Shown here: positions 5,643 to 40,092 of the stretch, piece by piece
How the letters are laid out: every line of letters starts with the position of its first letter
Numbering within the stretch: the stretch's first letter is position 1
Source: Candidatus Vogelbacteria bacterium
Lineage (GTDB): Bacteria > Patescibacteriota > Minisyncoccia > Phycocordibacterales > XYD1-FULL-46-19
DNA: 64,000 nt
Assembly (NCBI GenBank): GCA_903878275.1
Contig: CAIRHC010000007.1
Coordinates: forward strand, 78,482 to 142,481
Direction: 5' to 3'
Position numbers and translations under genes: made by a program
The notes under the pieces: model-generated
Told to the model about the DNA's origin: nothing
The model's database searches: none
The model's input: the letters and a program-made list of their open reading frames with translations, nothing else

Positions 5643-6212
5643 ATGGAAACCACTAAACCAACAACAACCAATAGACCACAGACCGGAGGTTTTGCTAGTC
5701 GCAAACCAGAAGGTTTTCGCCCGCGCCGATCTGGCGGTGATCGAAAATTTACCGAACGAGAAAAACCAGAATTTGACCATAAAGTCATCAATGTTCGTCG
5801 GGTGGCGCGTGTTGTCGCCGGCGGTCGTCGTTTTAGTTTCTCGGTCGTTGTTGTGGCTGGTGATCGTAAAGGGCGAGTTGGCGTTGGTATCGGCAAGGCT
5901 GGTGATACTTCGCTTGCCATTGAAAAAGCTCTAAACAAAGCGAAGAAAGAGATGATTCGCGTGCCTTTGACCGACAACAAATCAATTGCTCACGAAGTTG
6001 AAGCCAAATTTAAAGCCGCTCATATCATTATTCGTCCAGCCAAAGGACGAGGTTTGATTGCTGGTAGTTCGGTTCGCGTTTTGCTCAATTTGGCTGGCGT
6101 CAAAGATGTGAATGCAAAAATTTCTTCACGCAGTAAAGATAAATTAAATATTGCTCGGGCGACCATTATTGCTTTGTCTAGTTTGCCGAAGACCAATACA
6201 AAATCTGCCTAA
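5643..6212 (+). CDS. rpsE: 30S ribosomal protein S5 with ~45-aa Arg-rich N-terminal extension
   Basis: S5 dsRBD/core motifs (RVVAGGRRFSF.V..GD..GRVG.G.GKA). Confidence 0.9.
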   Translation: METTKPTTTNRPQTGGFASRKPEGFRPRRSGGDRKFTEREKPEFDHKVINVRRVARVVAGGRRFSFSVVVVAGDRKGRVGVGIGKAGDTSLAIEKALNKAKKEMIRVPLTDNKSIAHEVEAKFKAAHIIIRPAKGRGLIAGSSVRVLLNLAGVKDVNAKISSRSKDKLNIARATIIALSSLPKTNTKSA

Positions 6213-6232
6213 AGAAAAATAATTTTAATACT

Positions 6233-6664
6233 ATGCAACTACACGAATTAAAACGAAAAAATAAAAACAAGACCAAAAAAATAATTGGTCGTGGCGGTAA
6301 GCGTGGCACGACTTCTGGTCGGGGAACCAAGGGTCAGAAAGCTCGGGCTGGACGCAAGCTCCATCCGGAAATTCGTGATATGATTAAGAAGATTCCAAAA
6401 CTTCGAGGTTATCGTTTTGGGACCGTTGAGCCAAAAGCTTTTCCCTTAAATCTTTATATGATTGAGCGGACTTATTCGGCTGGTGAGACCGTTTCGCCTC
6501 AAACTTTGGTGCTCAAAAAAGTGATGACCAAAAGTGGCGGTAAATTCCCAGAAGTCAAAGTTCTCGGCTCTGGTAGTTTGACCAAAAAAATCATTGTGGC
6601 TGGTTGCGAAGTTTCGGCTTCGGCTCGGGAAAAAATCGAAAAAGTGGGCGGGGAAATAAAATAA
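6233..6664 (+). CDS. rplO: 50S ribosomal protein L15
   Basis: 143 aa, GRGGKRGTTSGRGTKGQK Gly/Arg-rich N-terminus. Confidence 0.9.
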   Translation: MQLHELKRKNKNKTKKIIGRGGKRGTTSGRGTKGQKARAGRKLHPEIRDMIKKIPKLRGYRFGTVEPKAFPLNLYMIERTYSAGETVSPQTLVLKKVMTKSGGKFPEVKVLGSGSLTKKIIVAGCEVSASAREKIEKVGGEIK

Positions 6665-6665
6665 T

Positions 6666-7937
6666 ATGTTGACAGCATTTTTTAATAAACTCAATTTAAT
6701 CTTAAGCGACAAAAGTTTAAGAGGCAGAATCCTGTTTATTGTTGGTGCTTTGGCTGTTTTTCGTTTTTGTGCCGCTATTCCAATTCCTGGTGTTAATGTT
6801 TTACAGCTTGAGAAATTTTTAAGCAACAACCAGTTTTTTGGTTTGTTGAATATTTTGTCTGGTGGTGGTTTGTCCAATCTTTCAATTATGATGCTTGGTG
6901 TCGGGCCGTTTATTACGGCGTCGATTATTATGCAACTTTTGACGATGGTTTCGCCGAAATTGAAGCAACTTTACCACGAAGAAGGACAAATGGGGCGACG
7001 TAAAATTGCCCAATACTCTCGTTTGCTGACTGTTCCGCTTGCTTTTTTGCAAGGTCTCGGTTACTTGGTCTTGCTCGAAAAACAAGGTATTTTGATGAAT
7101 CTAACTAGTTTTGAAAAATTAATAAACATTATCGTCATCGTCGCTGGCTCACTTTTGATTATGTGGATTGGTGAATTGATTACCGAATACGGTATTGGCA
7201 ACGGTGTCTCGATGATTATCTTCTCTGGTATCGTGTCTCGTTTGCCGTCGGCGATGTCTGAACTCGCCGTGACTTTTGAACCATCCCAAGCCCCAATGCT
7301 CCTTGGTTTTGGCGTGCTTATTGTGCTGGTCTTGGCGGGCATTGTTTTTATGACCGAAGCCGAGCGACCAATTCCGATTACTTATGCCAAGCGGGTGCGG
7401 GGGATGAAAGTTTATGGTGGCACTTCCACTTATTTACCGATTCGCGTCAATAATGCTGGTGTGATGCCGATTATCTTTGCTTTGTCGATTATTTTGTTCC
7501 CGCAAATGATTGCCAATTTTTTGGGTGCTTATGGTGGTGCCACCAAAACAGTTGCTGATTTTCTCAATGCCTTTTTTGCCAATCAATGGTTTTACGGCGC
7601 CTCTTATTTCTTGTTGGTCTTTGTCTTTACCTATTTTTATTCCGCGATTACTTTCGATCCAGAATCAATGGCGGTCAATTTGCAGAAAAATGGTGCTTTT
7701 ATCCCTGGTGTTCGTCCTGGTAAACCAACCGAAGAATATGTGACTAAGATTTTGACTCGTTTGACTTTGGTCGGCGCACTTTTCTTGGGTACGGTGGCGT
7801 TGTTGCCGATTATCCTCAAAGGTTTGACCGGTATTGCTACTCTGGCGATTGGCGGAACTAGTATTTTGATCGTCGTCTCGGTGGCGATTGAACTAGTGAA
7901 GCAGATCAATGCGCAGATTTCGATGAGAGAATATTAG
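6666..7937 (+). CDS. secY: preprotein translocase subunit SecY
   Basis: 423 aa multi-TM; position after rplO. Confidence 0.92.
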   Translation: MLTAFFNKLNLILSDKSLRGRILFIVGALAVFRFCAAIPIPGVNVLQLEKFLSNNQFFGLLNILSGGGLSNLSIMMLGVGPFITASIIMQLLTMVSPKLKQLYHEEGQMGRRKIAQYSRLLTVPLAFLQGLGYLVLLEKQGILMNLTSFEKLINIIVIVAGSLLIMWIGELITEYGIGNGVSMIIFSGIVSRLPSAMSELAVTFEPSQAPMLLGFGVLIVLVLAGIVFMTEAERPIPITYAKRVRGMKVYGGTSTYLPIRVNNAGVMPIIFALSIILFPQMIANFLGAYGGATKTVADFLNAFFANQWFYGASYFLLVFVFTYFYSAITFDPESMAVNLQKNGAFIPGVRPGKPTEEYVTKILTRLTLVGALFLGTVALLPIILKGLTGIATLAIGGTSILIVVSVAIELVKQINAQISMREY

Positions 7938-8906: not shown

Positions 8907-8940
8907 TGTGTTGCCAGAGCATTTTTTGTATACTAGAAAT

Positions 8941-9345
8941 ATGGAGATAACTCACCAACATAAGCTTGAAGTTGCTAAAATTGCCAAAAAATTCCAATTA
9001 AATCTAGTTGTTATTTTTGGTTCTTTTGCTAATGGAAAACAGCGAGAAGATAGCGATTTAGATATTGCCGTTTTGGGCGACAAAGAAATTTCTTTTAATG
9101 AGCAAATCGGCTTAATAAATGAATTATCTTTAATTTTTAATAAAAACATTGACTTGTCGGTGCTAAACCGAGCGAATCCACTACTACTTTTTCAAGTTAG
9201 CCAGAATTCGGTTATTATTTATGGCAGTCACGAAGAATTTTTGAAGTTTAAACTTTACGCTTTCAATGTCTACAATGATTATGCTCCCTATTTTGCGATG
9301 GAAAATAATTTGAATAAAAAAATAATCAATACTTATGCCAATTGA
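8941..9345 (+). CDS. minimal nucleotidyltransferase (MNT; MntA-like antitoxin)
   Basis: GSFANGK....DSDLD NTase motif. Confidence 0.75.
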   Translation: MEITHQHKLEVAKIAKKFQLNLVVIFGSFANGKQREDSDLDIAVLGDKEISFNEQIGLINELSLIFNKNIDLSVLNRANPLLLFQVSQNSVIIYGSHEEFLKFKLYAFNVYNDYAPYFAMENNLNKKIINTYAN

Positions 9346-9757
9346 TAAAAAACTTATAAGTCGAAAAATTACTTTGATCAACGGTGATTTAAAGAGTTTA
9401 AAAGGCTTAAACAAACTTTCACTCAAAATTTATTTAAGCAACGCGGAGTACGAAACACTGGCGGAAAGATATTTAGAAAGAATAATCGGGCGAATGATTG
9501 ATATTAATTATCATATTTTGTCAGAAAAAGAAAATGAAATGCCCACTGATTTTTACAGTTCTTTTGTTCTGTTGGGCAGAAAAAAGTATTTACCGATAAA
9601 ACTAGCTGAAACGATGGCTGGTTCGGCTGGGTTGCGGAATCGTTTGGCTCACGAGTATGATGAAATTGATGCTAAAAAAGTTTTCGGGGCGATCGATTCT
9701 TGCTTAAAAGATGTACCGAAATACCTAAAGAATATTGTTGCATCGCTGGGTTTGTAA
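9335..9757 (+). CDS. HEPN domain protein (DUF86/HepT-like toxin)
   Basis: RNRLAHEYDEID = HEPN R-x4-6-H motif; overlaps the MNT gene by 11 nt. Confidence 0.7.
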   Translation: MPIDKKLISRKITLINGDLKSLKGLNKLSLKIYLSNAEYETLAERYLERIIGRMIDINYHILSEKENEMPTDFYSSFVLLGRKKYLPIKLAETMAGSAGLRNRLAHEYDEIDAKKVFGAIDSCLKDVPKYLKNIVASLGL

Positions 9758-15372: not shown

Positions 15373-16718
15373 AAATTACTTTTTGTGGTGGTGTCGGAGA
15401 GGTGACCGGCGCCAATTTTTTACTCGAAGCCGAAGGTCTACCCAAGATGCTTGTCGATTGTGGTTTGTTTCAGGCGGGCAAAACTTTTGAAGATAAAAAT
15501 AAAGATGATTTTTCGTATAATCCGTCAGAAGTGGAATATCTTTTTGTTACTCACGCGCACCTGGATCATATCGGGCGTATTCCGTTTTTAGTCCGCAAAG
15601 GCTTCCGCGGTAAAATTTACTCGACGCCACCGACCAGAGAGATCGCCGAATATGCCCTGATGGACAGCTTGCATTTGCTTCAAAAAGAAAACGATGGCGG
15701 GGAACCTTTTTTTGATGAAAAAGATGTAAAGCAGACAATGTCGCAATGGGAGACTGTCGGCTATCACGAGCCGATTAAAATTGGTGATTTGGTGGTTGTG
15801 ATGCGAGATGCCGGGCACATCTTAGGTTCGACAATGTATGAGTTTAATTTAAATGGTAAAAAATTAGTGTTTACTGGTGACCTCGGTAATTCACCTTCAC
15901 CGCTTTTGAAAGATACCGAACAAATTACCGACGCTGATTATCTGGTGATGGAAAGTGTCTATGGTGATCGCAATCACGAAGATCGCGCCCAACGCAAAAA
16001 TATTTTGGAAGATGTGATCGAAGATACTGTCCGTTCCAATGGTACCTTGATGATTCCGGCTTTTTCGATCGAGCGAACTCAAGAAATTTTATATGAAATC
16101 GAGGGGATGATGCAAAGCTCGCGGATTCCATTGGTGCCGGTCTTTCTTGATTCTCCTCTTGGTATCGAAATCACGGCGGTCTACAAAAAATACGCCGATT
16201 ACTTAAATGATGAGGTGCGAAAATTGATAAAAAGTGGTGATGAGATTTTCCAATTTCCGCAATTACACAAGACCTTAAGTACCGCCGAATCCAAAGCGAT
16301 TTTTAATGGCAACCCTAAAAAAATAATTATTGCTGGCTCGGGAATGTCCACTGGTGGGCGGATTTTGCACCACGAACGACATTATTTGGGTGACAAAAAT
16401 AGCACTTTACTTTTGATCGGTTATCAGGCGGTCGGTAGTTTGGGTCGAGTTATTCAAGATGGCGCCCGGACCGTGAAAATTATGGGCGAAGAGATCGCGG
16501 TTAATGCCAAAGTCGCAAACATTCACGGCTACTCGTCTCACAAAGATTCTGATCATTTGCTCGAATTTGTTCGCGACACCGCCGATACTGTGAAAAAAGT
16601 TTTTGTTTTAATGGGCGAACCGAAAGCGTCATTGTTTTTGGTTCAGCGTCTGCGAGATTATCTCGGAGTTGATAGCTTGGTGCCTGCCGAGGGGCAATCG
16701 ATCGAAATAAGTTTCTAA
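15354..16718 (+). CDS. MBL-fold beta-CASP ribonuclease (RNase J/CPSF-like)
   Basis: HAHLDH metallo-beta-lactamase motif; ~450-aa beta-CASP architecture. Confidence 0.75.
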   Translation: MQEKKLKITFCGGVGEVTGANFLLEAEGLPKMLVDCGLFQAGKTFEDKNKDDFSYNPSEVEYLFVTHAHLDHIGRIPFLVRKGFRGKIYSTPPTREIAEYALMDSLHLLQKENDGGEPFFDEKDVKQTMSQWETVGYHEPIKIGDLVVVMRDAGHILGSTMYEFNLNGKKLVFTGDLGNSPSPLLKDTEQITDADYLVMESVYGDRNHEDRAQRKNILEDVIEDTVRSNGTLMIPAFSIERTQEILYEIEGMMQSSRIPLVPVFLDSPLGIEITAVYKKYADYLNDEVRKLIKSGDEIFQFPQLHKTLSTAESKAIFNGNPKKIIIAGSGMSTGGRILHHERHYLGDKNSTLLLIGYQAVGSLGRVIQDGARTVKIMGEEIAVNAKVANIHGYSSHKDSDHLLEFVRDTADTVKKVFVLMGEPKASLFLVQRLRDYLGVDSLVPAEGQSIEISF

Positions 16719-16742
16719 ATAATGCAAAATTGAAAAATCAAA

Positions 16743-17135
16743 ATGGAAAATGACAAGGCAAAATGTCAAAATGATAAAGAAAAATTCAAAAACGAGTTTA
16801 AAAGAAGAATTTATAGTTGGGTATTGAGATTAATAAAGTTCATTGATTGCTTACCTAAGAATCAGAGCGCTAATGTCATAGGCAAACAATTGATAAGAAG
16901 TGGAACAAGTATTTTAGCTAATTACGTTTAGGCAAATTCTGCTAGCTCAAAGAAAGATTTTATAAATTTTTTTACTTACTCATTAAAATCAGCTAACGAA
17001 TCAAAAGTCTGGATATCCCTACTTAAAGATACTGGTCAAGGAGAGATAAATGAGTTAGAGTATTTATTGAAAGAGCTGGTTGAAATATCAAATGTGGTGG
17101 CGAGTAGCATATTAACAATGAAAGGGCGTAAGTAA
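16743..17135 (+). pseudogene. four-helix-bundle protein (23S rRNA IVS-protein family) interrupted by an in-frame TAG at 16929
   Basis: ..IGKQLIRSGTSILANYV-TAG-ANSASSKKDFINF..SANESKVWISLL matches the family across the stop. Confidence 0.6.
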
Positions 17136-17883: not shown

Positions 17884-19713
17884 ATGAAAAAATATCTCGT
17901 AGTTTTAATACTTGTCGGACTAATCATCTCGACTCCTTTGGCAACCCAAGCTTTTAGTGGAGGGGATCTCTCTTCGCTTATTACTAAAATAGAAAATCTT
18001 ATTGTTCAGTTGAAGCAAGTGCAACTGGCAGCGGTTTTTAGTAGAAACCGGGTAGTCAAAAAAGCCCCGACACCGACACCTACACCAGCCACGGGTACTT
18101 ATTATGTCGATTGTGCCAGTACTGCCAACGATAATAATGCTGGTACTAGTGCAACAAAGCCTTGGCATACCATCGGCCGTGCTTCTTGTATGAGTGATAA
18201 TCCGCAGTGTGGCTCTTTTAAACCTGGCGATACTATTTTGTTTAAACGGGGTTGTACCTGGACTGGCGAGCAATTAACCATCAACACGTCTGGCACTGCT
18301 GGTAAGCCAATTACTATCGCTGACTACGGCACTGGTAATTTGCCGATTATACAGGGCAGTGTCTCTGCTCCAGTTGGTGTTGGTAACGTAAGAGATATGA
18401 TTAATGTAAACGGCAAGAGCTATCTGACATTTCAAAATCTAGAAATAAGATATGCTGAAAATCCGGTGGTTGTAAATAATTCTAGCAATATTGTTTTAAA
18501 TAATCTTAATATTCATGACAATATCGGCTACGGTGCCATTCTTTTAACCGCTGATAGTCAGAGTACAACAAATAATACCGTAAGTAATACTACAATATAC
18601 AATACCAAAGCCAGTACCGAATCAGGACAGATTGGCGAAAATGGCGACCCCAATAGTCGTGGTCATGGAATTTTTATGTTTTCTAATTCAAGTCAGTCAT
18701 TGGTAAATAATAACATTTTTACCGGCAATACTATTTATAATAATGGTGAGTCTGGTATCGACATGATTTTGGGATCAAATAATCGCTTTAGTCAAAATAA
18801 AATTTATAACAATGGCAGTTCCGGCATTAGTTTGGTAAGTGTTAACGGTGAATCTAATGGTAATATTGTTGAGAACAATCTTGCTTACAATAATGGTCAA
18901 ACAACCGACGACGTTGCCGGTATCGATTTGCATCGTATCGGTAGTAATAATATTGTAAGGTATAATGCGGTTTATAATACAGTTGATGCTTTAATAGCGC
19001 CGACAATCCCAGCTCGTCCATGGAATAATGGTACAAAATACGGCAACGTTGGCATTAGATTTGATAGTAATACTGACCAGTCAGTACCGGTGATTGCTGC
19101 CACTGGTAATCAAGTTTATTACAATCTAATCGTTGGCGGCACTTATAATTTTATGAATATTCGCAATACCGGTCTATCATTCTTCAACAATATTCTACAT
19201 AACAGCTCATCGGATAATGTCCGAATTCATAACAGTAAAGATGTTCTTGATTTTGTTTTTAAGAATAATATTCTTACTCGTAATAGTAATAACGAAAACG
19301 TTTATTTTGTTCGCATTCAAGATGCTAAAAATGTTACTGATCCTGCTAAGTTCAACAATAATATGTATTATTCTTCGGTCGCTGGTGGCAAGTTCTGCGC
19401 GCTTACAGATAAAGATGCTTGGTGCTTAAATCCGGTTACGACGCTGGCTGATTGGCAAAGTCAAAGTGGCTTTGATAAAACAAATTCGTTAATAGCTAAT
19501 CCTCAATTTTCAGCAACTGCTCCGACAAGTGTTTCGGCAACTAATATTGAGAGCGCAGTCAGTAGCTTTAAACTAAACGCTACTTCACCAGCCTTGGATA
19601 AGGGTGCCACAGATGTGACTGCTGGGTTATCGTTAGCTCAAGATTATTTTAGTCAAAGCGTGCCGTACGGCAGTAGCTTACCAGATCTTGGCTTTAGCGA
19701 AATTGCTAAATAA
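17884..19713 (+). CDS. secreted right-handed beta-helix (pectate-lyase-fold) protein
   Basis: signal peptide; PTPTPTP linker; repeated NN..IxNN and IYNNG.SGI PbH1-like turns. Confidence 0.7.
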   Translation: MKKYLVVLILVGLIISTPLATQAFSGGDLSSLITKIENLIVQLKQVQLAAVFSRNRVVKKAPTPTPTPATGTYYVDCASTANDNNAGTSATKPWHTIGRASCMSDNPQCGSFKPGDTILFKRGCTWTGEQLTINTSGTAGKPITIADYGTGNLPIIQGSVSAPVGVGNVRDMINVNGKSYLTFQNLEIRYAENPVVVNNSSNIVLNNLNIHDNIGYGAILLTADSQSTTNNTVSNTTIYNTKASTESGQIGENGDPNSRGHGIFMFSNSSQSLVNNNIFTGNTIYNNGESGIDMILGSNNRFSQNKIYNNGSSGISLVSVNGESNGNIVENNLAYNNGQTTDDVAGIDLHRIGSNNIVRYNAVYNTVDALIAPTIPARPWNNGTKYGNVGIRFDSNTDQSVPVIAATGNQVYYNLIVGGTYNFMNIRNTGLSFFNNILHNSSSDNVRIHNSKDVLDFVFKNNILTRNSNNENVYFVRIQDAKNVTDPAKFNNNMYYSSVAGGKFCALTDKDAWCLNPVTTLADWQSQSGFDKTNSLIANPQFSATAPTSVSATNIESAVSSFKLNATSPALDKGATDVTAGLSLAQDYFSQSVPYGSSLPDLGFSEIAK

Positions 19714-19757
19714 TAATATTTAAATTTAGTTAAGATAAATAAAAGATTGTAAGAATA

Positions 19758-19791
19758 AATCCCGCCCGAGGCTAGTCCTCGGGCGGGATTT
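19758..19791. repeat. REP-like palindrome family 1 variant / terminator
   Basis: aaatcccgcccgaggctagtcctcgggcgggattt. Confidence 0.6.
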
Positions 19792-19875
19792 GCGGTGAAG
19801 CTAATTAGAATGGGGATAACCCGTGAGCCGTGCGAACGGAGCAGTCCCCCGAAGTGGGGATAACTAAATTATACT

Positions 19876-19901
19876 GGGGGGGGGGCTTTCTGTGATATAC
19901 T
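19876..19901 (+). promoter_or_regulatory. poly-G(10) + TGaTATACT promoter module
   Basis: G10 at 19876-19885, then ctttctgtgatatact. Confidence 0.5.
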
Positions 19902-19946
19902 TAAACAAGTTTTTATTATCAATTATTAGTTTAATTTATTTTATTT

Positions 19947-21779
19947 ATGAAAAAATATCTCGTAGCCTTGGCACTAGTCGGGCTAATCATCTCGACTCCT
20001 TTGGCAACCCAAGCTTTTAGTGGAGGGGATCTCTCTTCGCTTATTACTAAAATAGAAAACCTTATTACTCAATTAAAACAATTTCAATTGGGTGCGGTCG
20101 GAACTATCACTGGAGAATCAGCGATTTTAAGTGATTTTGTTTTTACTCCATCCTCACCGTTGGCGATCAACACTACTATCACTGGGAAAGTTAAAATTAC
20201 CAACAACGGCACTGTCGCTCTTCCTGGAGCTGGATATGGTTTGAGGGCGACAAATGTGACAGATTCTAAATTTCTATTTTCTGTTTTTGTGCCCACTATT
20301 CAGCCTGGAGCTTCGGTTGTTCTCCAAAATGGTATGACCTTCTCGTTCCCGACAGCTGGCTACAAAGATACTTTGTGGGAATTAATAAAGGTGGGCAGTA
20401 CTGTGCCTTTGACGACGACTCATCAATATCTCGTGGCGGGGGAAAGTGCCGGTCTTCTTTTTGATTCTTTCTCGCTGGCTTCTCCTGTTGCTCCAAATAC
20501 CAATGTCACCGCGAGTATCAAAGTGGTCAGTAATGGTACCGCTTTATCTGGCTATCAGCTCGTCGGAACGAGTGACACTGGTTTAGTTATCCCAACTATT
20601 ACTGATGTTTCTGTCCCCTCGGCTAGCCCGGCTGGTATTCAAATTAAAACTTTTACCACCCCACCATTTAATTCTGGTACATCCGGAAACTCGGTCATTA
20701 CTTGGAAATTAATTAAAGGCACTACGGTTTTGGGAAATGCGGTGACGGGGACTTTGATGGTGGGTCAAGCAACTCCTTCTATTGCTGTAATTTCCCCAAA
20801 TGGAGGAGAAAATTGGAAAGTGGGTGAAACACATAATATTACTTGGAAGACTAAAGACCTTCCGTCGTCAGATATAATTAATATTAATTTGTTACAGAAG
20901 AATAATGCAATGTTGTTTGTGGCCAATGCTATTAATTCCGGTTCTTATTCTTGGACGATCCCTGTTGAAATGCATGGTTTCAATTTAAATGAGGACGATA
21001 ATTATAAAATACAGCTTCTCGATAATAAGGCGCAACCTTCTTATTTTTCTGACTTGAGCGATACTTATTTTAGTATTTTGGAATCACCTACCACTCCCAC
21101 CGTCAATAGTATTACTCCAAACACCGCACCGATCGGAACTACTTCTCGAATAATAATCAGAGGTTTAAATTTCAGCATCGGTAGCACCATCTATACTTTT
21201 AATGGAGAGACGAAGGACAAACTGTTCTGTACTATCAGCGTCAACGCCAATGGGAACTATGATTGTCCTCTTCCTGCTACTTTTTCCGCTGGTGCATACA
21301 AACTTGCGGTGGTAAACTCTCGTGGGACGAGCAATAAGGTAGATTTTACGTTTACTTCTATTCCTGTTATTACTAATTTAACTGTGGCGTCTACCTCAGC
21401 TATTTTAGGTCAAGGTATTGGTAGTCCGGTCGATCGTTATCCTGTCACTTTTTCTTTTACTCTGGTTAATTCAGGCGATATTCCTTTGTATTTGTCGAAT
21501 AATCCTTCAATTGCATTTGCAACAGTGACATCTCCCGTAAATTCTCCATCTAGTGTTTCTTCTTTTCTTGCGTCTCTTTTACCGGGGGATTCACCTGGTG
21601 CATATGTTATACCGGCGAACGGACAGAGAAGATTCGTAGCTTCTGGACTGATTATGAGTTCTCTTCAAGGAGCAGGGTTACAAATTGTGAGTATATTTTA
21701 CGGTACTTCAGCCAGTGATTTGAGAGCCCTGAACATAGATGTTTCTCGTAAAGGTTTGGGTCAAATGGTGCTTAATTAG
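19947..21779 (+). CDS. secreted surface protein (paralogue of the 17884 N-terminus; Ig-like and IPT-like modules)
   Basis: first ~45 aa near-identical to the 17884 gene; IPT module ~85% nt identical to 11383-11640. Confidence 0.7.
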   Translation: MKKYLVALALVGLIISTPLATQAFSGGDLSSLITKIENLITQLKQFQLGAVGTITGESAILSDFVFTPSSPLAINTTITGKVKITNNGTVALPGAGYGLRATNVTDSKFLFSVFVPTIQPGASVVLQNGMTFSFPTAGYKDTLWELIKVGSTVPLTTTHQYLVAGESAGLLFDSFSLASPVAPNTNVTASIKVVSNGTALSGYQLVGTSDTGLVIPTITDVSVPSASPAGIQIKTFTTPPFNSGTSGNSVITWKLIKGTTVLGNAVTGTLMVGQATPSIAVISPNGGENWKVGETHNITWKTKDLPSSDIININLLQKNNAMLFVANAINSGSYSWTIPVEMHGFNLNEDDNYKIQLLDNKAQPSYFSDLSDTYFSILESPTTPTVNSITPNTAPIGTTSRIIIRGLNFSIGSTIYTFNGETKDKLFCTISVNANGNYDCPLPATFSAGAYKLAVVNSRGTSNKVDFTFTSIPVITNLTVASTSAILGQGIGSPVDRYPVTFSFTLVNSGDIPLYLSNNPSIAFATVTSPVNSPSSVSSFLASLLPGDSPGAYVIPANGQRRFVASGLIMSSLQGAGLQIVSIFYGTSASDLRALNIDVSRKGLGQMVLN

Positions 21780-24248: not shown

Positions 24249-24652
24249 GGGGATGATCGGCTTCGACAGGTAGCCTTTCTCTAGTGTGTATGTGGAGACT
24301 CCGAATCCTCCTTAAACATCGGAAAAACAGTCAAATGCCAACGCATCTGACAAGGGACTTGTGGCTTCGCCATATTTCTCTCCAGCCTTGGCTTTAGCCT
24401 AACGCTGGTGCTGGCTTAAATCGCAGTCTGGATGATTTAAGTTGGTATAATAAATTCTGGACTAGCAATTAAACATTTCTCGGTTTAAAAGCGAAACAAA
24501 GAGAATCGACTAATTAAGGTTTTGTTTGTTTAACACTTAGTTAGTTTAAATCCGCTCGGCGATTAGCCGAGCGGGACATAAACAATCTACACATATAGAT
24601 TCACTAAAGTAACCTATTTGCACGGGGGTTCGATTCCCCCCATCTCCACCCA
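24249..24652 (+). ncRNA. ssrA: tmRNA (ssrA)
   Basis: 5' GGGGATGATCGGCTTCGACAGG; 3' tRNA-like GGGGGTTCGATTCCCCC T-arm + CATCTCCACC with a G3:U wobble; internal tag ORF ending ..PALALA-TAA at 24337-24402. Confidence 0.8.
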
Positions 24653-31277: not shown

Positions 31278-33236
31278 ATGGCGAAAAATAAAGATAAAAA
31301 AGAGCCGAAATTACCTTTCGGTCAAAATAAGATTGTTCGACAATTTGGCAGCCAGATTTTGCTGGCGGTTTTGATTTTGATGATTTTTGTTGGACTTTAT
31401 TCTTTGGCGACGGAAAAGAAAGACAACACGCCAATCGTGCCTTTGTCGCAAGTGGCGAGCGAGGTGATAAGTGGTCAGGTGGCGAAAATCAGTGTTCAAG
31501 GTGAAGATTTGACCGTTACGTTGAAAGATAAAAAAATACAAAACGCGAAAAAGGAAGTCGAAAATTCTTTGTCGCAATCTTTGGTCAACTATGGCGTGAC
31601 ACCAGAAAAATTGAGTGCGGTGTCGATTGAAATTTCCAATTCTTATGGTGCGAGTTTTTGGCTATTAAATATTTTGCCGATTCTCTTGCCGATTATTTTC
31701 GTCTTATTTTTATTTTGGTATATTTCGCGTCAGGTCAAAGGGGCGAGCGTGCAAGCTTTTACTTTTGGACAATCTCGAGCCCGTTTGATTGATCCGAACG
31801 ATACGAAGCAACGAGTGACCTTTAAAGATGTCGCCGGTGTCAAAGAAGCCAAAGAAGAATTGACCGAGATTGTAGATTTCTTAAAAAATCCCAAAAAGTT
31901 TTTAGATATCGGTGCGCGAATTCCCAAAGGTGTGCTGCTGATGGGAGCGCCGGGTACTGGCAAGACCTTGTTGGCTCGGGCGGTGGCTGGTGAAGCGCAA
32001 GTGCCGTTTATGTATTTGTCGGGTTCAGAATTTGTTGAAATGTTTGTCGGTGTCGGTGCTTCTCGGGTGCGTGATTTATTTAATATGGCAAAAAAATCGG
32101 CACCATCAATTATTTTTATTGATGAGATCGACGCAATCGGTCGCCATCGTGGTTCGGGTATGGGTGGTGGCAACGACGAGCGCGAACAAACTCTCAATCA
32201 GATTTTAGTGGAAATGGATGGTTTTGAACCGTCAGAAAAAGTGATTATTATGGCGGCGACCAATCGACCGGACGTGCTTGATCCGGCGCTTCTTCGACCC
32301 GGCCGTTTTGATCGTCGCGTGATGCTTGATCAGCCCGACAAAAAAGATCGCGAAGAAATTTTAAATATTCATTCTGGTAAAAAACCACTTGGTCCGGATG
32401 TAAATATGACCGTCATTGCCGAACGCACTCCCGGTTTTTCTGGTGCTGATTTGGCAAATTTAATGAACGAAGCGGCGATTCTGGCGGCGCGCGAAAATCG
32501 TACCGAGCTGACACAATACGATTTGTTGCGTTCGGTGGAAAAAGTAATGCTCGGACCAGAACGAAAAAGTCACATTCTTTCGACTCGCGAGAAAAAAATT
32601 ACCGCTTATCACGAAATGGGTCACGCCCTCGTGTCGTCACTGCTTGAATTTGCCGATCCGGTACATAAAGTTTCTATTATTGCTCGTGGTAACGCTGCTG
32701 GTTATACTTTGAAACTGCCCTTTGAAGATCGTCGTTTGCAGTCGCGTCGAGAATTTTTGGCAGATCTGGCGATGTCACTCGGTGGTTATGTCGCCGAAAA
32801 AATGATTTTCAATGATGTGACGACTGGTGCCTCAAATGATATCCAAGTGTCCACGGCTCTGGCACGTGATATGGTGACAAAATATGGAATGAGTGAAGAA
32901 ATTGGTCCGGTGGCACTCGATGGCACGTCGCGCGTCAATATTATGACTGGTGTGATGAGCGAACACGGCATTTCCGAAAAAACCTCATCGATTGTCGACG
33001 AAGAAGTGGCGAAACTTTTGACCGGCGCCTTAAATCAAGCTGAAGAATTATTGAAAGCTCATAAACCGGCACTTGATAAAATGACCGAAGAATTGGTAAA
33101 AGTGGAAACGCTCGAACGTGAAGATTTCGAAAAACTTTTGATTTTAAATGGCATCAAGCCAAAAGTAAAACCGGAGTTGGTTGGAAAAGAAGGTGGTATT
33201 TTTGCCCCGGGTTTAGATGGGGTGGAGGTGGTTTAA
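31278..33236 (+). CDS. ftsH: ATP-dependent zinc metalloprotease FtsH
   Basis: GAPGTGKT Walker A, HEMGHA zinc motif. Confidence 0.92.
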
Positions 33237-33360: not shown

Positions 33361-34689
33361 CTAGATATTTGGATTGTAACAAAACGGTGCACCATTTGGG
33401 CTATTTTTACAAATATCAGTTCCCCGGCAACAAAAATTATCCCCAGTATATTCTCCGGTGCCTGAACAAAAAACTGGTGCATCAACTGGACAAAACTCTT
33501 TTTTGGGTGGTGAACAGTAAATGGCTTCTGTTTTCGCTTTCTTATCTATCTTACAGCCATCTTTCGTCGGACAACAAACCGCTGTGCCATTATTTTTTCC
33601 GCAAATAACGTTATTTGGTGGTGCGCATGGTGGCGAGCAAACACCCATCGTGTATGGGAAAAGAACGGGCCAAACCCCAACCTCAAACGTTTTTATCGAA
33701 CAGATGTCACCCTTGTGACAACAAATCGCTCGGTCAGTATCCTTACCACACAGTTCTTCGTCCGGTAAACATTGTTTGTTGTTACACCGAAAGGTGCACG
33801 CCCCAAAGTTCTTTACCTCTTGATAAGGTTTCGGTCGACAGCAAAAACCATTTTTTTTAGGATCAGTTTCAGATTCAACATAATTACCAGGGCAACGTCC
33901 TGATTTGTTGGCATTATTTATGCCACGCCAAGCAGTATTGAGTACCCCTGAAGGATAGCCACCTATTTTGTCTGATGAGGCAACTTGAAGTGACGAACCA
34001 TTATTTGAATTGACAGTACAAACTGGAAAGACACAGGAACGTCTTCCCGTAGAAGCGTTTGGTAGACATTTGCCTCCAACACTTCTGATTACTCCACCAG
34101 CAGAGAGTGGCCCGGTATATTGACACTCTTTGTTGGTCACACATTCAGAACAACCACCATCGACACAGTATGGACTAGAACCTCCACAAGTCTTCACTGT
34201 TCCTGCGGGCAAAACACTGTCGTAAGCTGTGTAGTTGGCAAATGTTTTTTTCACTATTTTTCCTCTTGGATCCGTTGCGGTTATGGTGGTATTCCTACAC
34301 TGTAAGTAGATACCTGTACCACCACCGGAGTCACCGTTCATTGTCTCCCAGCAAGACGTCTTATCTCCACCGGGATAGGGAGACGGACCTTGCACTTCGG
34401 AAACCAATCGATAAAAATCTCCGTTTGGGGAACCCGTAAAGACCGAATATTCTAGTGTTTCGGGTTGATTCAGTGTGGGGTCTGGCCAGGCTTCTCTATC
34501 TACCAAACAAGGACAACCAACTAGGTTTTTTTGATAACTTGGGTCTTTGTATTCAAAACTGTTACGAGGACAGGATCTTAACGGCGGTGATATTGTAGAA
34601 GCATTTACTGATGATAGATTTGGAAGCCAGAAAGAGAGAAATAGAAAACTTAGCAAAAAATACAAGTGAAAAGTTTTTTTATTAGCCAT
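33361..34689 (-). CDS. secreted cysteine-rich protein
   Basis: signal peptide; C-terminal half with >40 Cys in CC/CxxC patterns. Confidence 0.6.
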   Translation of the reverse strand: MANKKTFHLYFLLSFLFLSFWLPNLSSVNASTISPPLRSCPRNSFEYKDPSYQKNLVGCPCLVDREAWPDPTLNQPETLEYSVFTGSPNGDFYRLVSEVQGPSPYPGGDKTSCWETMNGDSGGGTGIYLQCRNTTITATDPRGKIVKKTFANYTAYDSVLPAGTVKTCGGSSPYCVDGGCSECVTNKECQYTGPLSAGGVIRSVGGKCLPNASTGRRSCVFPVCTVNSNNGSSLQVASSDKIGGYPSGVLNTAWRGINNANKSGRCPGNYVESETDPKKNGFCCRPKPYQEVKNFGACTFRCNNKQCLPDEELCGKDTDRAICCHKGDICSIKTFEVGVWPVLFPYTMGVCSPPCAPPNNVICGKNNGTAVCCPTKDGCKIDKKAKTEAIYCSPPKKEFCPVDAPVFCSGTGEYTGDNFCCRGTDICKNSPNGAPFCYNPNI

Positions 34690-34697
34690 AATTAACA

Positions 34698-36653
34698 TTA
34701 TTTTTTAACTGATGGTACAATCGAGCAAACCGGTGTGCCATGATTTTTTTCGACGACGATCTTACTATTAACACCTTGGATACTTGGCAAAATGAAATTT
34801 TCTGGTGGCGTGGTAAAAACATTTTGCTGGTTGTATTGCTCAATTGACGAAAATAGTAATCGATTGCTGTTATCGTAAACTGAAATGTAATAATAATCTT
34901 CCCCGATCGTAGGTAGGGGGGAATTTTTCTGATCAATGAAAATTGGTAGCTCCGTCTCTGTCGTTGCCGGCTGAATCAAGGCCGAATCACAAGTTATTTT
35001 CGGGTTGCCATCTGTATCGTAAGTATAGGTTGTTTGAAAATATACTTTATTAGTGCGAGAAATTCCCGACGAGTCCTCGTATAAATTAACTGTCATCGGG
35101 TTTGAAGCGCAAATGTTTTGATCGCTGGCCAAGCAGATTTTTAATTGGTATTGTCCGGCGGGGATTGCTTTGTCGGTGATTTGTTCCCCGTAATTCTCTT
35201 TATTTCTGATAAAAACATTAATTGCCGTATTGTTAGAAGTTAAGGCGTCAACGTTTTTTATTGTGGTAGCCATTATGTTTTTGGCAATTACGTAGTCTTG
35301 GTTACCGTTATTTAAAATCAGTTTATAATGATTGAAAGAATCTAATCCGGTAGTTTCCCATTCAAGACTAAATGGTTGCCAGCGCTCAAAAGAATTGGCG
35401 CCACTGATGGCTGTCAACTTGGTAATTTTAATTTTAGGGACGATACTCCATCTGTCGTAAGTGCCCGAGAAGTCATTAAGGTTTCGATAGCTAATGTTGT
35501 TGTGATAAGGAGCATTGCCGACTACAAAATTATTTCTTTTACTAGTCCAAAACCCGCCGTTGCGACTATCTAAGAAAGAATAAGCTTGCCATGGGTGAAA
35601 GAAGCCACTAATTTCGCTAGTGTTTATGGTGGTATTTTCTGGAATCAAATTATCATTTCTTGTCCATGGAGACGAAACGCCTTTTACTGTGCTTTGGACA
35701 AAGACGGTGGCAGCTGGGGAATTTGGGAAATAACCCCAAAGATAAGATTTATAATTGGGAAATTCATTTGCTGGTTGGTTGATGTTTGGGTAGATAATGT
35801 TTTGTCCGGCGGTCGGGACAAAATTTGGGGGGACTTGATTGTTAGCAACGAGATTGCTGGTGCGGTTGATCCACGTCGGTGGAGTAGTGACAGGGTTGTA
35901 GATAAATACTGTTAAATTATTATTTCTGGTGTCAGTTCCCCAGAGGTGGATGCGATAATTTTTTAGGTCGTTGCTTAGCAGGACATAGTAGCCCGTGATT
36001 GGACGAAACCATTCTGGAATGCCAGGACCATCATAATTACCAAGAGTATTGCCGTAGTCGACGGTAGTTTGTGTCTGATTAACCCATTTGTTTAAGCCGG
36101 AATTAAAATTGAACAAACGCAAATTGTTTCCAACATCATATCCCCACAATTGGACAATGTATTTACTAATGTCTGTATCGCTAAATGCCGGCCAATAATA
36201 AGCGGTGAGTGGTTTAATATTTGCCGGGAGTAATCCGCTGGTGTTTGGCTGATCGGCACTTATGGCTGGGCCGAGCGAAGAGGTCTCATTACACCATTGT
36301 TTACTTTTTGTTGAATAAGTGAAGAAACTTAATACCGACGAACTATTGGCGTAACCCCAATACCAGAGTTTATAATGGTGATCGTTTATCTCACTACTAC
36401 TGTCTGGGCCATCAGGGATTAGGACGCTCGCTTTTATTTCAAAAACGCTGGGCAATTCGGATGAACACGTGGGTGCTTTTAGCGGAGCTTTTGCGACGAC
36501 GACAATTCCGACTGCCGCGAGTTGTTGTGTTGCCCAATTTGTAACCGAAGGTAAAGCAAGAGAAATCGACAAAGAAAAAAATACAACGACAAAACAAGCT
36601 AAAAGAATAAAGTAAGATTTACTAAAACGTTCCCAGCTTAAATTTTGTTTCAT
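34698..36653 (-). CDS. secreted protein with four Y(K/R)x.LWGY..N repeats
   Basis: 651 aa, N-terminal TM/signal; co-directional with the downstream Cys-rich gene. Confidence 0.6.
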   Translation of the reverse strand: MKQNLSWERFSKSYFILLACFVVVFFSLSISLALPSVTNWATQQLAAVGIVVVAKAPLKAPTCSSELPSVFEIKASVLIPDGPDSSSEINDHHYKLWYWGYANSSSVLSFFTYSTKSKQWCNETSSLGPAISADQPNTSGLLPANIKPLTAYYWPAFSDTDISKYIVQLWGYDVGNNLRLFNFNSGLNKWVNQTQTTVDYGNTLGNYDGPGIPEWFRPITGYYVLLSNDLKNYRIHLWGTDTRNNNLTVFIYNPVTTPPTWINRTSNLVANNQVPPNFVPTAGQNIIYPNINQPANEFPNYKSYLWGYFPNSPAATVFVQSTVKGVSSPWTRNDNLIPENTTINTSEISGFFHPWQAYSFLDSRNGGFWTSKRNNFVVGNAPYHNNISYRNLNDFSGTYDRWSIVPKIKITKLTAISGANSFERWQPFSLEWETTGLDSFNHYKLILNNGNQDYVIAKNIMATTIKNVDALTSNNTAINVFIRNKENYGEQITDKAIPAGQYQLKICLASDQNICASNPMTVNLYEDSSGISRTNKVYFQTTYTYDTDGNPKITCDSALIQPATTETELPIFIDQKNSPLPTIGEDYYYISVYDNSNRLLFSSIEQYNQQNVFTTPPENFILPSIQGVNSKIVVEKNHGTPVCSIVPSVKK

Positions 36654-36799: not shown

Positions 36800-36904
36800 A
36801 ATGTTGTCGTATTTTGTGGTTGCCGTTTCGTGTTTTGTCGGCGGTTTTATTCTTGGCATTTTAGCTACGCTGTTGGTTATTGCGGCCGAAAGTGATAGCT
36901 AAAA
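36800..36904 (+). CDS. small hydrophobic peptide (~34 aa)
   Basis: AAAGGAGAG RBS 7 nt upstream; single TM; followed by terminator hairpin agtttgggcga..tcgcccaaactgctttttt. Confidence 0.4.
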
Positions 36905-37009
36905 TAATTGTGTTTAGCAGTTTGGGCGAAGTGTCGCCCAAACTGCTTTTTTGCAAAAAATTTAAATTGAAAAACTTAGTTTTTTAGGTTATATTTAATT
37001 ACGGTCGTT

Positions 37010-37082
37010 GCGCCTGTAGCTCAGTTGGTAGAGCGACGAGCTTATACCTCGTTGGTCCTAGGTTCGAGTCCTAGCAGGCGCA
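37010..37082 (+). tRNA. tRNA-Ile with anticodon UAU
   Basis: cloverleaf parsed by hand: acceptor gcgcctg/caggcgc, T-arm ctagg-ttcgagt-cctag, anticodon stem acgag/ctcgt, loop cttatac. Confidence 0.75.
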
Positions 37083-37090
37083 CACAAAGT

Positions 37091-39346
37091 TTATTCCCAA
37101 TGCGTCTCCTGTTTTTTGCTCGCCAACTTTTCGTTGAATTGCGGATAAGTTTTTAATTCGGGATCTTGGTCGATTATTTTTTCGGCTTCGGTTCTTGCCG
37201 CTTCAACCATTTTTAAATTTTTGATGGCTTCCATCCCGATGTCGGAAATGCCCCATTGTTTTTCTCCGGAGATGGTGCCGGAACCACGAAGAGCGAGATC
37301 GTGCTCGGCGAGCTCGAAACCGTTTTTGGCACTGACCAGAGCTTTTAATCGGCTCATCGATTTTTCATTTTTGGTTTCCGAAAAAATATAACAATAAGCT
37401 TGGTGATTGGAGCGAATGACGCGACCACGGAGCTGGTGAAGTTGTGCCAAGCCAAAACGTTCGGCACCTTCGATAATTATGATGGTGGCATTTGGTACAT
37501 TGACGCCGACTTCAATGACCGAGGTGGAGACGAGAATATTTATCTCGCCATCGGTAAATTGTTGCATCGTGTCCTCCTTGTCTTTTGGTTTTAATTTGCT
37601 GTGCATTACTTCAACCACGAATTCGGGAAAAACTTTATCTTGCAGGCGAATCGTCTCGGCTTTGGCGGATTTGGCTTGAACTGCCATTTCTTTTTCGGGG
37701 TCTGGTTCGTCAATGCGAGGGCAAATGACATAAGCTTGGCGACCAGCTTTTAATTCGGTGCGAATGTGCTCATAAGCTTCGTCGCGTTTGTCTGGCGGTA
37801 TAATTTTAGTAATGACGGGTTTTCGTCCGGCGGGCATTTGATCAAGTAAGGTCAAATCAAGGTCGCCAAAAACGGTGAGGGCGAGAGTGCGCGGAATTGG
37901 AGTGGCGGTCATCGAAAGTAGGTGAGGGAGTGGCTCCGGTTTGTTTTTGCCTGCACGAACGCCACTGGCGGGCGGGTCGCTGGTTCGACGGACAAGTTTG
38001 GCTCTCTGCATTACACCGAATCTGTGCTGTTCGTCGATAATTGCCAGACCGAGTTTTTTGAATTTAACCTTTTTTTGAATGAGCGCGTGGGTGCCGACGA
38101 GAATAGGGATTTCACCATTGGCGACCCATTTTAATAATGTGGTGCGAGAAATGTGGGTGGAATCGTGCGGGTCGATTTTTGAAGGAAATTTTTTACATTC
38201 TTTGCCGGTGATTAGCCCGATTTGAATATTCATATGCTCGAAATATTTTATAAATGATTCAAAATGTTGACGGGCGAGAATTTCGGTCGGTGCCATATAT
38301 GAGACTTCCAGACCGGCTTTGACCATCGCAAAAGTGGTGGCGGCGGCGACCATCGTCTTGCCCGAGCCGACATCGCCTTCGAGGAGGCGAACCATTGGTT
38401 TGTCGTCGGCAAAATCGGCTAAAATAATATCAATGGCTTTGGTTTGGGCGTCGGTCGGTTTAAAGGGAAAGCGATCAAGAAATTCTTTTAAATCTTTGCG
38501 ACCTAGTTTGGTTTTGAAGCTTGGGTTGCTTTGATAAATTTTCTTGTCCCGCAAACGAGCGAGTTGGATAAAAAAAACTTCTTCAAAAGCGAAACGTTTG
38601 CGAGCGGAAATAGAATCTTCTACTTTTTTTGGCAAATGAATCCAAACCAGCGCGGTTTTTAGCGACGGCAAATTATATTTTTTTAAAATTTCAGGTGGAA
38701 TCGGGTCAGTTATTTTGTCGTGCAGGTTGTTGCTAATTAATTTTTTGATGTGATAGTAAAACCAACCAGAAGAAATGCCTCGGGTTTCGGGATAGACTGG
38801 GATTAAAAAATTGTCGAGGTTGTTGCCGGAATCGCCTTCATAAAAAAGTGATTCTTTTTGGGCTTGCCAGCCAAGCGTGTCGCGGACTTCGGGGTTGGTG
38901 ATGTAGAGCTCGCCAGTTGGTGAAGACTTGGATGGCTCGCTGGTGCCCGCCGGCGACTTGTCGCCGGCGGGATGGTTCTTTCTTTTTTGCGACACTTTTC
39001 CGCGAAACTCGGCAAATTGTCCCTCGGCAATTTTTTTGGCGAGATATGGTTGATGAAACCAAACGATTTTTATTCGTCCGGTTTCATCTTCGACCACGGC
39101 TTCACCCATTGGAATTTTACTGCGGAAGCCTTTTTTGGTTTGAGCAGAAATAACTTTGCCGTAAATTACCACTTCATCGCCAGCTTTTAGGTCGGCAATT
39201 TTTTGGCGGTTGCCACTTTGTTCGTAACGGCTCGGCAAACACAAAAGCAAATCAGCCAAAGTTTCAACCTTTAGTTTTTTTAAGGCAACTTTTTGCAGGG
39301 GATTAAGTCGGAAGACTCGATCGATGTTGTCTTGAAGTTCCATCAA
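37091..39346 (-). CDS. recG: ATP-dependent DNA helicase RecG
   Basis: GDVGSGKT, DEQHRFG helicase motifs; N-terminal wedge domain. Confidence 0.88.
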   Translation of the reverse strand: MMELQDNIDRVFRLNPLQKVALKKLKVETLADLLLCLPSRYEQSGNRQKIADLKAGDEVVIYGKVISAQTKKGFRSKIPMGEAVVEDETGRIKIVWFHQPYLAKKIAEGQFAEFRGKVSQKRKNHPAGDKSPAGTSEPSKSSPTGELYITNPEVRDTLGWQAQKESLFYEGDSGNNLDNFLIPVYPETRGISSGWFYYHIKKLISNNLHDKITDPIPPEILKKYNLPSLKTALVWIHLPKKVEDSISARKRFAFEEVFFIQLARLRDKKIYQSNPSFKTKLGRKDLKEFLDRFPFKPTDAQTKAIDIILADFADDKPMVRLLEGDVGSGKTMVAAATTFAMVKAGLEVSYMAPTEILARQHFESFIKYFEHMNIQIGLITGKECKKFPSKIDPHDSTHISRTTLLKWVANGEIPILVGTHALIQKKVKFKKLGLAIIDEQHRFGVMQRAKLVRRTSDPPASGVRAGKNKPEPLPHLLSMTATPIPRTLALTVFGDLDLTLLDQMPAGRKPVITKIIPPDKRDEAYEHIRTELKAGRQAYVICPRIDEPDPEKEMAVQAKSAKAETIRLQDKVFPEFVVEVMHSKLKPKDKEDTMQQFTDGEINILVSTSVIEVGVNVPNATIIIIEGAERFGLAQLHQLRGRVIRSNHQAYCYIFSETKNEKSMSRLKALVSAKNGFELAEHDLALRGSGTISGEKQWGISDIGMEAIKNLKMVEAARTEAEKIIDQDPELKTYPQFNEKLASKKQETHWE

Positions 39347-39799: not shown

Positions 39800-40003
39800 T
39801 TGTTGGGCAGGGATTTACCCTAAAGGGTATGAACTTCTCATCTCCGGCCTTCCGAGCAGAAGCCCAAAATTTGATAAAGAATTATCAAATTTTAAATTTT
39901 GCGGAGAGGCAGGGATTTACCCTAAAGGGTATAAACTTCTCATCTCCAGCCTTCCGTGCAGAAATTTAAAATCCGATACAAAAGTATCAAATTTTAAATT
40001 TTG
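39800..40003. repeat. two ~100-bp tandem direct repeats, each beginning with a copy of the tRNA-Ser 3' end (ttttgcggagaggcagggatt)
   Basis: read directly; the overlapping ORF 39786..40049 is a translation artefact. Confidence 0.6.
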
Positions 40004-40092
40004 CGGAGAGGCAGGGATTCGAACCCTGGAACCGATTTTACTCGGTTAACACATTAGCAGTGTGCCCCTTTCGGCCACTCAGGCACCTCTCC
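40004..40092 (-). tRNA. tRNA-Ser (anticodon GCU), class II long variable arm
   Basis: acceptor ggagagg/cctctcc, T-arm cagggttcgaatccctg, anticodon loop ctgctaa. Confidence 0.7.

Follow-up and report, generated by a model that had tools for sequence, protein, structure and literature searches.

The gene described here raises the question of how its host reads the codon AUA. Nearly all bacteria read AUA via lysidine, and tRNAIle(UAU) has been described as limited to 'rare cases' (bioRxiv 10.64898/2026.02.03.703510); ~98% of the bacterial genomes with an annotation contain tilS (PMC12514573). Counts of tRNAIle(UAU) in bacteria have found it in 9 species lacking tilS (PMC3575796), in 19 species (tRNADB-CE) and in 17 genomes from Bifidobacterium, Mycoplasma and Neorickettsia (PMC8450103), and 371 unique metagenomic sequences of tDNA-Ile(TAT) are on record with no origin assigned. 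We analyzed a stretch of 64,000 nucleotides, called the window below, that carries a tRNA-Ile gene with the anticodon UAU. We asked whether this gene encodes a working tRNA, what AUA means in its lineage, and whether the tRNA stands in for the lysidine system. Our favored answer, which we hold to be likely, is that the gene encodes a dedicated AUA decoder, functional and vertically inherited, that serves in place of tRNAIle2(CAU) and TilS in the host.

The tRNA gene, its surroundings and its host

ARAGORN predicts a tRNA-Ile with anticodon (tat) at 37010-37083 on the forward strand, and the Rfam model RF00005 matches 37010-37082 over its full length with 75.2 bits (gathering score 29, E 1e-14) and no non-canonical pairs flagged. 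Together with an alignment of homologues, these calls define a forward-strand gene of 73 nt at 37010-37082, with the discriminator A73 at 37082 and no encoded CCA. Divided into its elements, the gene reads GCGCCTG TA GCTC AGTTGGTA GAGC G ACGAG CTTATAC CTCGT TGGTC CTAGG TTCGAGT CCTAG CAGGCGC A. Direct reading thus gives the acceptor stem GCGCCTG/CAGGCGC, the D arm GCTC-AGTTGGTA-GAGC, the anticodon stem ACGAG/CTCGT and the T arm CTAGG-TTCGAGT-CCTAG. The anticodon loop CTTATAC (37041-37047, +) has 7 nt, namely C32, U33, U34, A35, U36, A37 and C38, with the anticodon TAT at 37043-37045 (+). The coordinates, loop sequence and UAU anticodon given in a preliminary description of this DNA are exact according to ARAGORN, the Rfam match and direct reading.

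The gene thus has a canonical cloverleaf, on the evidence of Rfam, ARAGORN and covariation, and UAU at positions 34-36 of a 7-nt loop with U33 and A37. The class label for such a tRNA in tRNAscan-SE is tRNAIle3. We take A73, U12-A23, C4-G69 and A37 to be sequence elements of E. coli tRNAIle. In an alignment of 33 tRNAs that is described below, A73 is invariant, U12-A23 is present in 32/33 and C4-G69 in 27/33, and A37 is kept. The deviations from the elements that we assume for E. coli are position 38, which is C and not A, and the pair 29-41, which is G-C and not C-G.

The tRNA gene looks like its own transcription unit, given a promoter-like site and a terminator-like hairpin that precede it. 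The former, TTGAAA-17-TATATT (36967-36995, +), has 10/12 matches in a scan with the sigma-70 consensus and ends 14 nt before the 5' end of the tRNA; as a pattern match, it is a putative promoter. The hairpin (36916-36947, +) has 14 pairs, is GC-rich, is followed by a T-run and closes an upstream small ORF. This ORF, which lies just 5' of the hairpin (36801-36902, +), encodes 33 aa of a very hydrophobic peptide, MLSYFVVAVSCFVGGFILGILATLLVIAAESDS.

Further upstream is ftsH (31278-33236, +; Pfam Peptidase_M41 and AAA), which is kept as the upstream neighbor of the tRNA in the lineage. The interval between ftsH and the tRNA is occupied by two hypothetical genes of 445 and 651 aa (33361-36653, −) that have no Pfam matches. 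According to tblastx synteny, both genes are missing from the equivalent site in the relative L003, where the order is ftsH, 158 nt, tRNA-Ile(UAU) and recG. The 651-aa protein has a hydrophobic N-terminal segment and repeated 'LWGY'-like motifs. On the other side, recG (37091-39346, −; Pfam RecG_wedge/DEAD/Helicase_C/RecG_dom3_C) is convergent with the tRNA; its stop lies 8 nt past the tRNA's end, and it is also a neighbor in the close relatives L002 and L003. Beyond recG lies a tRNA-Ser(GCU) (40003-40092, −; ARAGORN/Rfam), which recurs further downstream in 13 related loci.

The window has a GC content of ~40% throughout, and that of the tRNA is the same as in its surroundings. The genome is therefore only moderately AT-rich, and the preliminary description overstated the case in calling it AT-rich. 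When FtsH was compared with one genome per GTDB species, the nearest relatives were MAGs of Candidatus Paceibacterota with at most 80% identity, followed by Campbell-, Kaiser-, Taylor-, Nomura-, Azam- and Vogelbacteria and members of the 'Parcubacteria/Patescibacteria group'. In the window's ribosomal-protein genes (5643-6664, +), uS5 is directly followed by uL15, with no uL30 between them, and this arrangement is a hallmark of the CPR. These sequence signs place the host among the Paceibacteria (Parcubacteria), inside the CPR.

The window also contains part of a ribosomal-protein operon, secY, adk, map, ndk, infC, smpB, a tmRNA and a type IV pilus cluster. Several features of this gene content and of the related loci are recorded here as observations in their own right. 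A Metallophos_2 phosphoesterase gene (3409-3945, +) is located in the ribosomal-protein operon between uL5 and uS8, and a nucleotidyltransferase/HepT (MNT-HEPN) toxin-antitoxin-like pair follows secY (8908-9757, +). In 66 long ORFs, the stop codons are TAA 46 times, TAG 17 times and TGA 3 times; these ORFs are intact under table 11, so nothing points to a recoding of TGA in frame. The window's tmRNA has 402 nt (24249-24650) and those of other relatives ~390-420 nt, while that of L017 has 514 nt (6803-7316, −), perhaps owing to an insertion or an intron; Patescibacteria tmRNAs that contain group I introns have been listed (PMC13011429). In L015, ARAGORN predicts a tRNA-Ser with the anticodon ACT, i.e., with A34, at 16703-16790 (−) beside a tRNA-Ser(GCT); Ser anticodons starting with A are very rare in bacteria (tRNADB-CE).

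Conservation of the tRNA and the meaning of AUA

A tRNA scan found tRNA-Ile(tat) in 32/41 CPR-type ftsH loci. We assessed synteny in 37 sources, i.e., the window and the 36 loci with a complete ftsH 3' end. In 33 of these 37, tRNA-Ile(TAT) is located at most 4.2 kb downstream of ftsH; it is within 300 nt of ftsH in 15 sources and on the same strand in 26. The sources that have it include Campbell-, Kaiser-, Taylor-, Nomura- and Azambacteria. It was not found near ftsH in four loci, which are L001 (the closest relative), L017, L032 and L049.

We then aligned the window's tRNA with 32 homologues and scored these 33 tRNAs against the cloverleaf. Fully 99.9% of alignment cells are paired, compared with ~40% in slid controls. 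Changes on both sides occur at 16 of the 21 pairs, and compensatory changes are present in all four stems. The covariation score is 0.707 versus 0.178 in shuffles, and none of 500 shuffles reaches the observed values. Since the 32 homologues keep the cloverleaf by way of compensatory changes, the structure is far beyond chance. The positions U8, A14, G18, G19, C32, U33, U34, A35, U36, A37, G53, C56, C61 and A73 are invariant, and position 38 is C in 30 of the 33 tRNAs, U in 2 and A in 1. The pairing and the invariant positions argue for purifying selection on a working tRNA, and against a pseudogene or a recent import. On this comparative evidence, tRNA-Ile(UAU) is a functional, vertically inherited and lineage-wide gene in the Paceibacteria.

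Genes of this type also occur outside cellular genomes. A tRNA-Ile(TAT) whose D arm follows the same pattern is found on at least 120 IMG/VR contigs (L055-L174), in several cases within large tRNA arrays, which indicates that UAU-type Ile tRNAs are common in phage genomes. The idea that such tRNAs are found only in a few reduced genomes, such as that of Mycoplasma mobile, which the preliminary description had adopted, is thus outdated in view of 33/37 Paceibacteria sources and at least 120 viral-contig genes.

The meaning of AUA was investigated by aligning 36 CPR ftsH genes with 10 Clostridia FtsH proteins and counting the residues opposite each codon. Opposite CPR AUA codons, the residues are I in 43%, V in 17% and L in 15% of cases, and Met is outside the seven commonest residues. 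The corresponding values are I 46%, V 18% and L 16% for AUU, and I 43%, V 21% and L 11% for AUC, while CPR AUG codons are opposite M in 36% of cases. Because the alignment profile of AUA is the same as those of AUU and AUC, we conclude that AUA means isoleucine and not methionine. The codon is in regular use: the window has it at 10.25 per 1000 codons, where it makes up 13.5% of the codons for Ile, with 3.9 per 1000 in ten ribosomal-protein genes versus 9.6 per 1000 in sixteen other genes. The ribosomal-protein genes that contain AUA are uL22, uL24, uL5 and uL15. Given that AUA is used even in ribosomal-protein genes, a decoder of AUA is indispensable. The earlier proposal that the UAU tRNA-Ile decodes AUA therefore stands, in that the tRNA is genuine and should read AUA as Ile; that it is a functional AUA-decoding tRNA-Ile(UAU) is the claim in which our confidence is very high.

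TilS, CAU tRNAs and published tRNA counts

Position 34 of the gene is T, as it is in 32/32 homologues, and is thus not the C34 of the canonical system. With T rather than C as the first anticodon base, lysidine is neither needed nor possible on tRNA-Ile(UAU). It might nevertheless be made elsewhere in the genome, on a separate CAU tRNA. We searched for both the enzyme and its substrate. The usual place of tilS in many bacteria is just upstream of (hpt-)ftsH.

Reference TilS sequences were taken from a metagenome scan for CAU tRNAs with C38, where C38 was imposed by the search pattern; the loci returned are not demonstrably from the CPR. The scan found 101 CAU tRNAs with C38, and TilS follows immediately in 19 of the 62 that have enough downstream sequence. 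Among the TilS proteins that were checked against Pfam, PF01171 is present in 10/10 and TilS_C also in 6/10. The CAU tRNA is 6-455 nt upstream of tilS and on the same strand (L182, L198, L207, L211, L248, L261, L271, L278, L283 and others), and 13 of the loci returned have an ftsH homologue. Since the CAU tRNA adjoins tilS and ftsH is often next, the candidate substrate tRNA is clustered with the enzyme that would modify it and with ftsH. A descent of the UAU tRNA, in place, from such a CAU tRNA was considered in view of the shared C38, but this C38 was required by the pattern, and the two tRNAs stand on different sides of ftsH.

We constructed an HMM from 18 of these environmental TilS sequences, including the 10 that were Pfam-checked, and searched ORFs of at least 80 aa. 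Neither the window nor any of 54 related ftsH loci, ~0.8 Mb in all, yielded a TilS; the best HMM match had an E-value of 0.43, and tblastn was also negative. A scan for the PP-loop motif gave one irrelevant match only. Neither tilS nor hpt is present 5' of the window's ftsH, as the 160-aa ORF and the S9 peptidase gene located there do not correspond to TilS or Hpt. In ten related loci, the ORFs directly 5' of ftsH are RNase J-like, patatin, HtrA, radical SAM or unknown proteins, and none is TilS. The Clostridia loci examined also have no TilS within 10 kb of ftsH. ARAGORN found no CAU tRNA in the 64-kb window, nor is there one in the 54 related ftsH loci. In the literature that we searched, no paper joins the CPR, Patescibacteria or Parcubacteria with tilS or lysidine.

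Published tRNA counts extend this comparison to whole genomes. Table S2 of one study gives ARAGORN and tRNAscan-SE tRNA counts for 95 complete Patescibacteria genomes (PMC13011429). Because ARAGORN labels all CAU tRNAs as Met, the canonical system appears as Ile=1/Met=3 and the UAU type as Ile=2/Met=2. It is important to emphasize that these counts are by amino acid and not by anticodon, so that the reading of the extra Ile tRNA as UAU is inferred; this reading agrees with the 32 UAU genes that we observed directly. In 20 Paceibacteria genomes, the Ile/Met counts are 2/2 in 11, 3/2 in 2, 1/3 in 5, 2/3 in 1 and 1/2 in 1 (PMC13011429). The Dojkabacteria have 2/2 in 7/7 genomes, all 12 of 12 Microgenomatia have 2-3 Ile-anticodon tRNAs and 1-2 CAU tRNAs, ABY1 has 2/2 in 2 genomes and 2/3 in 2, and the WWE3, UBA1384 and Doudnabacteria genomes are all 2/2 (PMC13011429). 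The canonical 1/3 is found almost always in Saccharimonadia, and also in JAEDAM01, Kazan-3B-28 and 3/5 Gracilibacteria, with a few genomes that have an extra tRNA (PMC13011429). The split between the Ile/Met counts was left without comment in that paper (PMC13011429).

This split is class-specific, and its two states rarely overlap. Such near-exclusive states argue that the UAU tRNA replaces the CAU tRNA and TilS rather than coexisting with them. By the same counts, tRNA-Ile(UAU) is probably also present in most other CPR classes. For the host itself, we infer a genome-wide loss of tilS and tRNAIle2(CAU), and we consider it quite likely that tRNA-Ile(UAU) replaces the lysidine system in this genome. 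The independence from tilS that had been suggested for this locus is thus probably right, considering that TilS and CAU tRNAs are lacking from the window and the 54 loci and that counts of Ile=2 pair with Met=2.

Decoding of AUA, alternative explanations and wider significance

Given this tentative replacement, we propose the following route from gene to codon. The tRNA would be transcribed from its own promoter, and CCA would be added after transcription, since none is encoded. Charging with Ile would then fall to the host's IleRS, probably an enzyme of the eukaryote-like type 2, as in the relative L006. On the ribosome, the A of AUA would be the partner of U34, and misreading of AUG would have to be held low by a weak U34-G interaction, by the loop context (C32 and C38), by competition from tRNA-Met, or by some combination of these. 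Such a low level of misreading would resemble the measurements for the M. mobile tRNA and the B. subtilis suppressor tRNA.

There is no IleRS gene in the window, and our view of charging therefore draws on L006, whose FtsH is 70% identical, which has the UAU tRNA and which is the one relative where we found IleRS2. Its IleRS matches TIGR00392 with 830 bits, scores ~705 bits with PDB entries 8c8w and 1ile versus 300 bits with the IleRS1 1ffy, and has a C-terminal DUF5915. Charging of tRNA-Ile(UAU) with Ile by the host's IleRS is thus a prediction from sequence. An enzyme that accepts the UAU anticodon would be either an IleRS1 with Arg at the site of E. coli W905 or an IleRS2 of the eukaryote type. 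The L006 enzyme (18033-21710, +; 1225 aa) has a His_Phos_1 domain at residues 563-731 inside the catalytic domain, splitting tRNA-synt_1; this is an unusual architecture, for which an in-frame domain insertion and an assembly or ORF artefact are both possible. A eukaryote-type IleRS is known from tilS-less Bifidobacterium and Neorickettsia, and in eukaryotes this enzyme charges tRNAIle(PsiAPsi) (PMC3575796). Among lysidine-using bacteria, too, IleRS2 is common (bioRxiv 10.64898/2026.02.03.703510), so it is permissive of the UAU system and not diagnostic of it.

As to the discrimination between AUA and AUG, it is known that the way in which U34 reads codons is tuned by the 32-38 pair. A role of C38 is therefore a reasonable hypothesis, drawn by analogy. 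Position 38 is A or U in the other CPR tRNAs of the same loci and C in none of them, and, among the matches listed, it is A 67 times, T 20 times and C 18 times in 106 viral tRNA-Ile(TAT) genes that have the same D arm. The tuning of U34 reading by positions 32 and 38 has been cited for tRNAGly (PMC3919564). In M. mobile and in a suppressor of a B. subtilis tilS deletion, U34 is unmodified, and AUA is bound well and AUG weakly, an effect that depends on the tRNA and the ribosome context (PMC3575796; PMC3919564).

Several alternatives to a functional replacement must be considered. One is that the gene is not a working cellular tRNA-Ile, being a pseudogene, a recent import from a phage or mobile element, or a tRNA that receives an amino acid other than Ile, such as Met after reassignment of AUA. 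The abundance of tRNA-Ile(TAT) on viral contigs and the two hypothetical genes that are inserted just upstream relative to L003 might seem to favor an import. However, synteny with ftsH and recG is kept across many Paceibacteria, every stem has compensatory substitutions, the gene does not stand out from its surroundings in GC content, and it is preceded by a promoter-like site; the retained ftsH synteny and the compensatory changes rule out both a pseudogene and a phage import. Reassignment is ruled out by the alignment of AUA to I/V/L, where Met is not among the top seven residues. We therefore regard this family of explanations as extremely improbable. Another is a redundant system. The host might keep tilS and tRNAIle2(CAU) elsewhere, with the UAU tRNA as a second decoder. 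Both systems are documented side by side in Lactobacillus plantarum and L. casei (PMC3575796), one complete Paceibacteria genome with Ile=2/Met=3 could carry both systems, and the window covers only ~10% of a typical CPR genome. Yet 13 Paceibacteria genomes have 2-3 Ile tRNAs with two CAU tRNAs and 5 have one with three, against 1 that is possibly mixed, and TilS was not found in ~0.8 Mb of the window and related loci. Moreover, a spare tRNA is not expected to keep an invariant anticodon loop throughout a class. Redundancy thus appears unlikely.

A further alternative concerns the mechanism only and leaves the identity of the gene untouched, namely that a modified U34, e.g., pseudouridine, provides the preference for AUA over AUG. 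Eukaryotic PsiAPsi works with the same type of IleRS (PMC3575796), and L006 has IleRS2. Most bacterial U34 nucleotides in split codon boxes are modified. Against this, the two bacterial tRNAIle(UAU) cases studied by experiment (M. mobile and the B. subtilis suppressor) both have an unmodified U34, CPR genomes are reduced, and the window revealed no candidate for a modifying enzyme. We view a modified U34 as doubtful.

The closest parallels are Bifidobacterium adolescentis and Neorickettsia sennetsu, which likewise have an encoded UAU for AUA and an inferred absence of tilS and tRNAIle2(CAU) (PMC3575796; PMC8450103). Their IleRS is of the eukaryote-like type 2, which on the Paceibacteria side was seen in L006. 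Unlike these cases, the present one belongs to another phylum (CPR/Paceibacteria) and is apparently class-wide or wider, instead of being confined to a few species. The tRNAIle2(UAU) of M. mobile shares the anticodon, A37 (the t6A site), the reading of AUA without lysidine and a reduced genome (PMC3575796). That organism, however, uses an IleRS1 with a Trp-to-Arg change (Arg865), its ribosome helps to reject AUG and its U34 was shown to be unmodified (PMC3575796), whereas the L006 relative has IleRS2. L. plantarum and L. casei also have a tRNAIle(TAT) gene, but they have kept tilS (PMC3575796), while the Paceibacteria counts favor replacement.

The canonical tRNAIle2(CAU) with TilS performs the same task as an AUA-specific minor Ile tRNA, and the genes of both systems tend to adjoin ftsH. 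In the metagenomic loci, the canonical order is tRNA(CAU)-tilS-ftsH, with the tRNA upstream, whereas the UAU tRNA described here is downstream of ftsH and has no TilS beside it. Outside the bacteria, Nanoarchaeum equitans and Korarchaeum cryptofilum similarly read AUA with UAU and without a C34-modifying enzyme, in a lineage that is ultra-small or reduced in the case of Nanoarchaeum (PMC8450103; PMC3919564). Archaea and eukaryotes are of course other domains; the enzyme lost in the archaea is TiaS and not TilS, and eukaryotes convert both U nucleotides to pseudouridine.

Bacterial tRNAIle(UAU) as a kind is therefore already known, and the locus by itself is ordinary, in that nearly every sampled relative has tRNA-Ile(UAU). 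What may be new is the scale, which extends to an entire class and probably to the greater part of the CPR, and the wide phylogenetic spread of this tRNA seems to be under-reported. Our tentative extrapolation, which we put forward as possible and somewhat short of an even chance, is that the UAU replacement is ancestral to, or pervasive in, much of the CPR, with Saccharimonadia and Absconditabacteria-like exceptions, and with C32/C38 possibly acting as an anti-AUG device. The classes concerned may be most Paceibacteria and, by counts, Microgenomatia, ABY1, Dojkabacteria, WWE3 and others.

If this is true, tilS would no longer be near-universal when uncultured diversity is taken into account. 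CPR genomes would be mis-scored by annotation pipelines, and by sets of 'essential genes' or completeness markers, that expect TilS and tRNAIle2. Hundreds of divergent tRNAs with an invariant loop would form a natural data set on how U34 discriminates A from G, and cultured Paceibacteria, e.g., Minisyncoccus, would make this discrimination directly testable. The lineage-wide UAU pattern contradicts a commonly repeated generalization: in a sizeable part of bacterial diversity, decoding of AUA without lysidine would be the norm, and not a curiosity of ~17 genomes.
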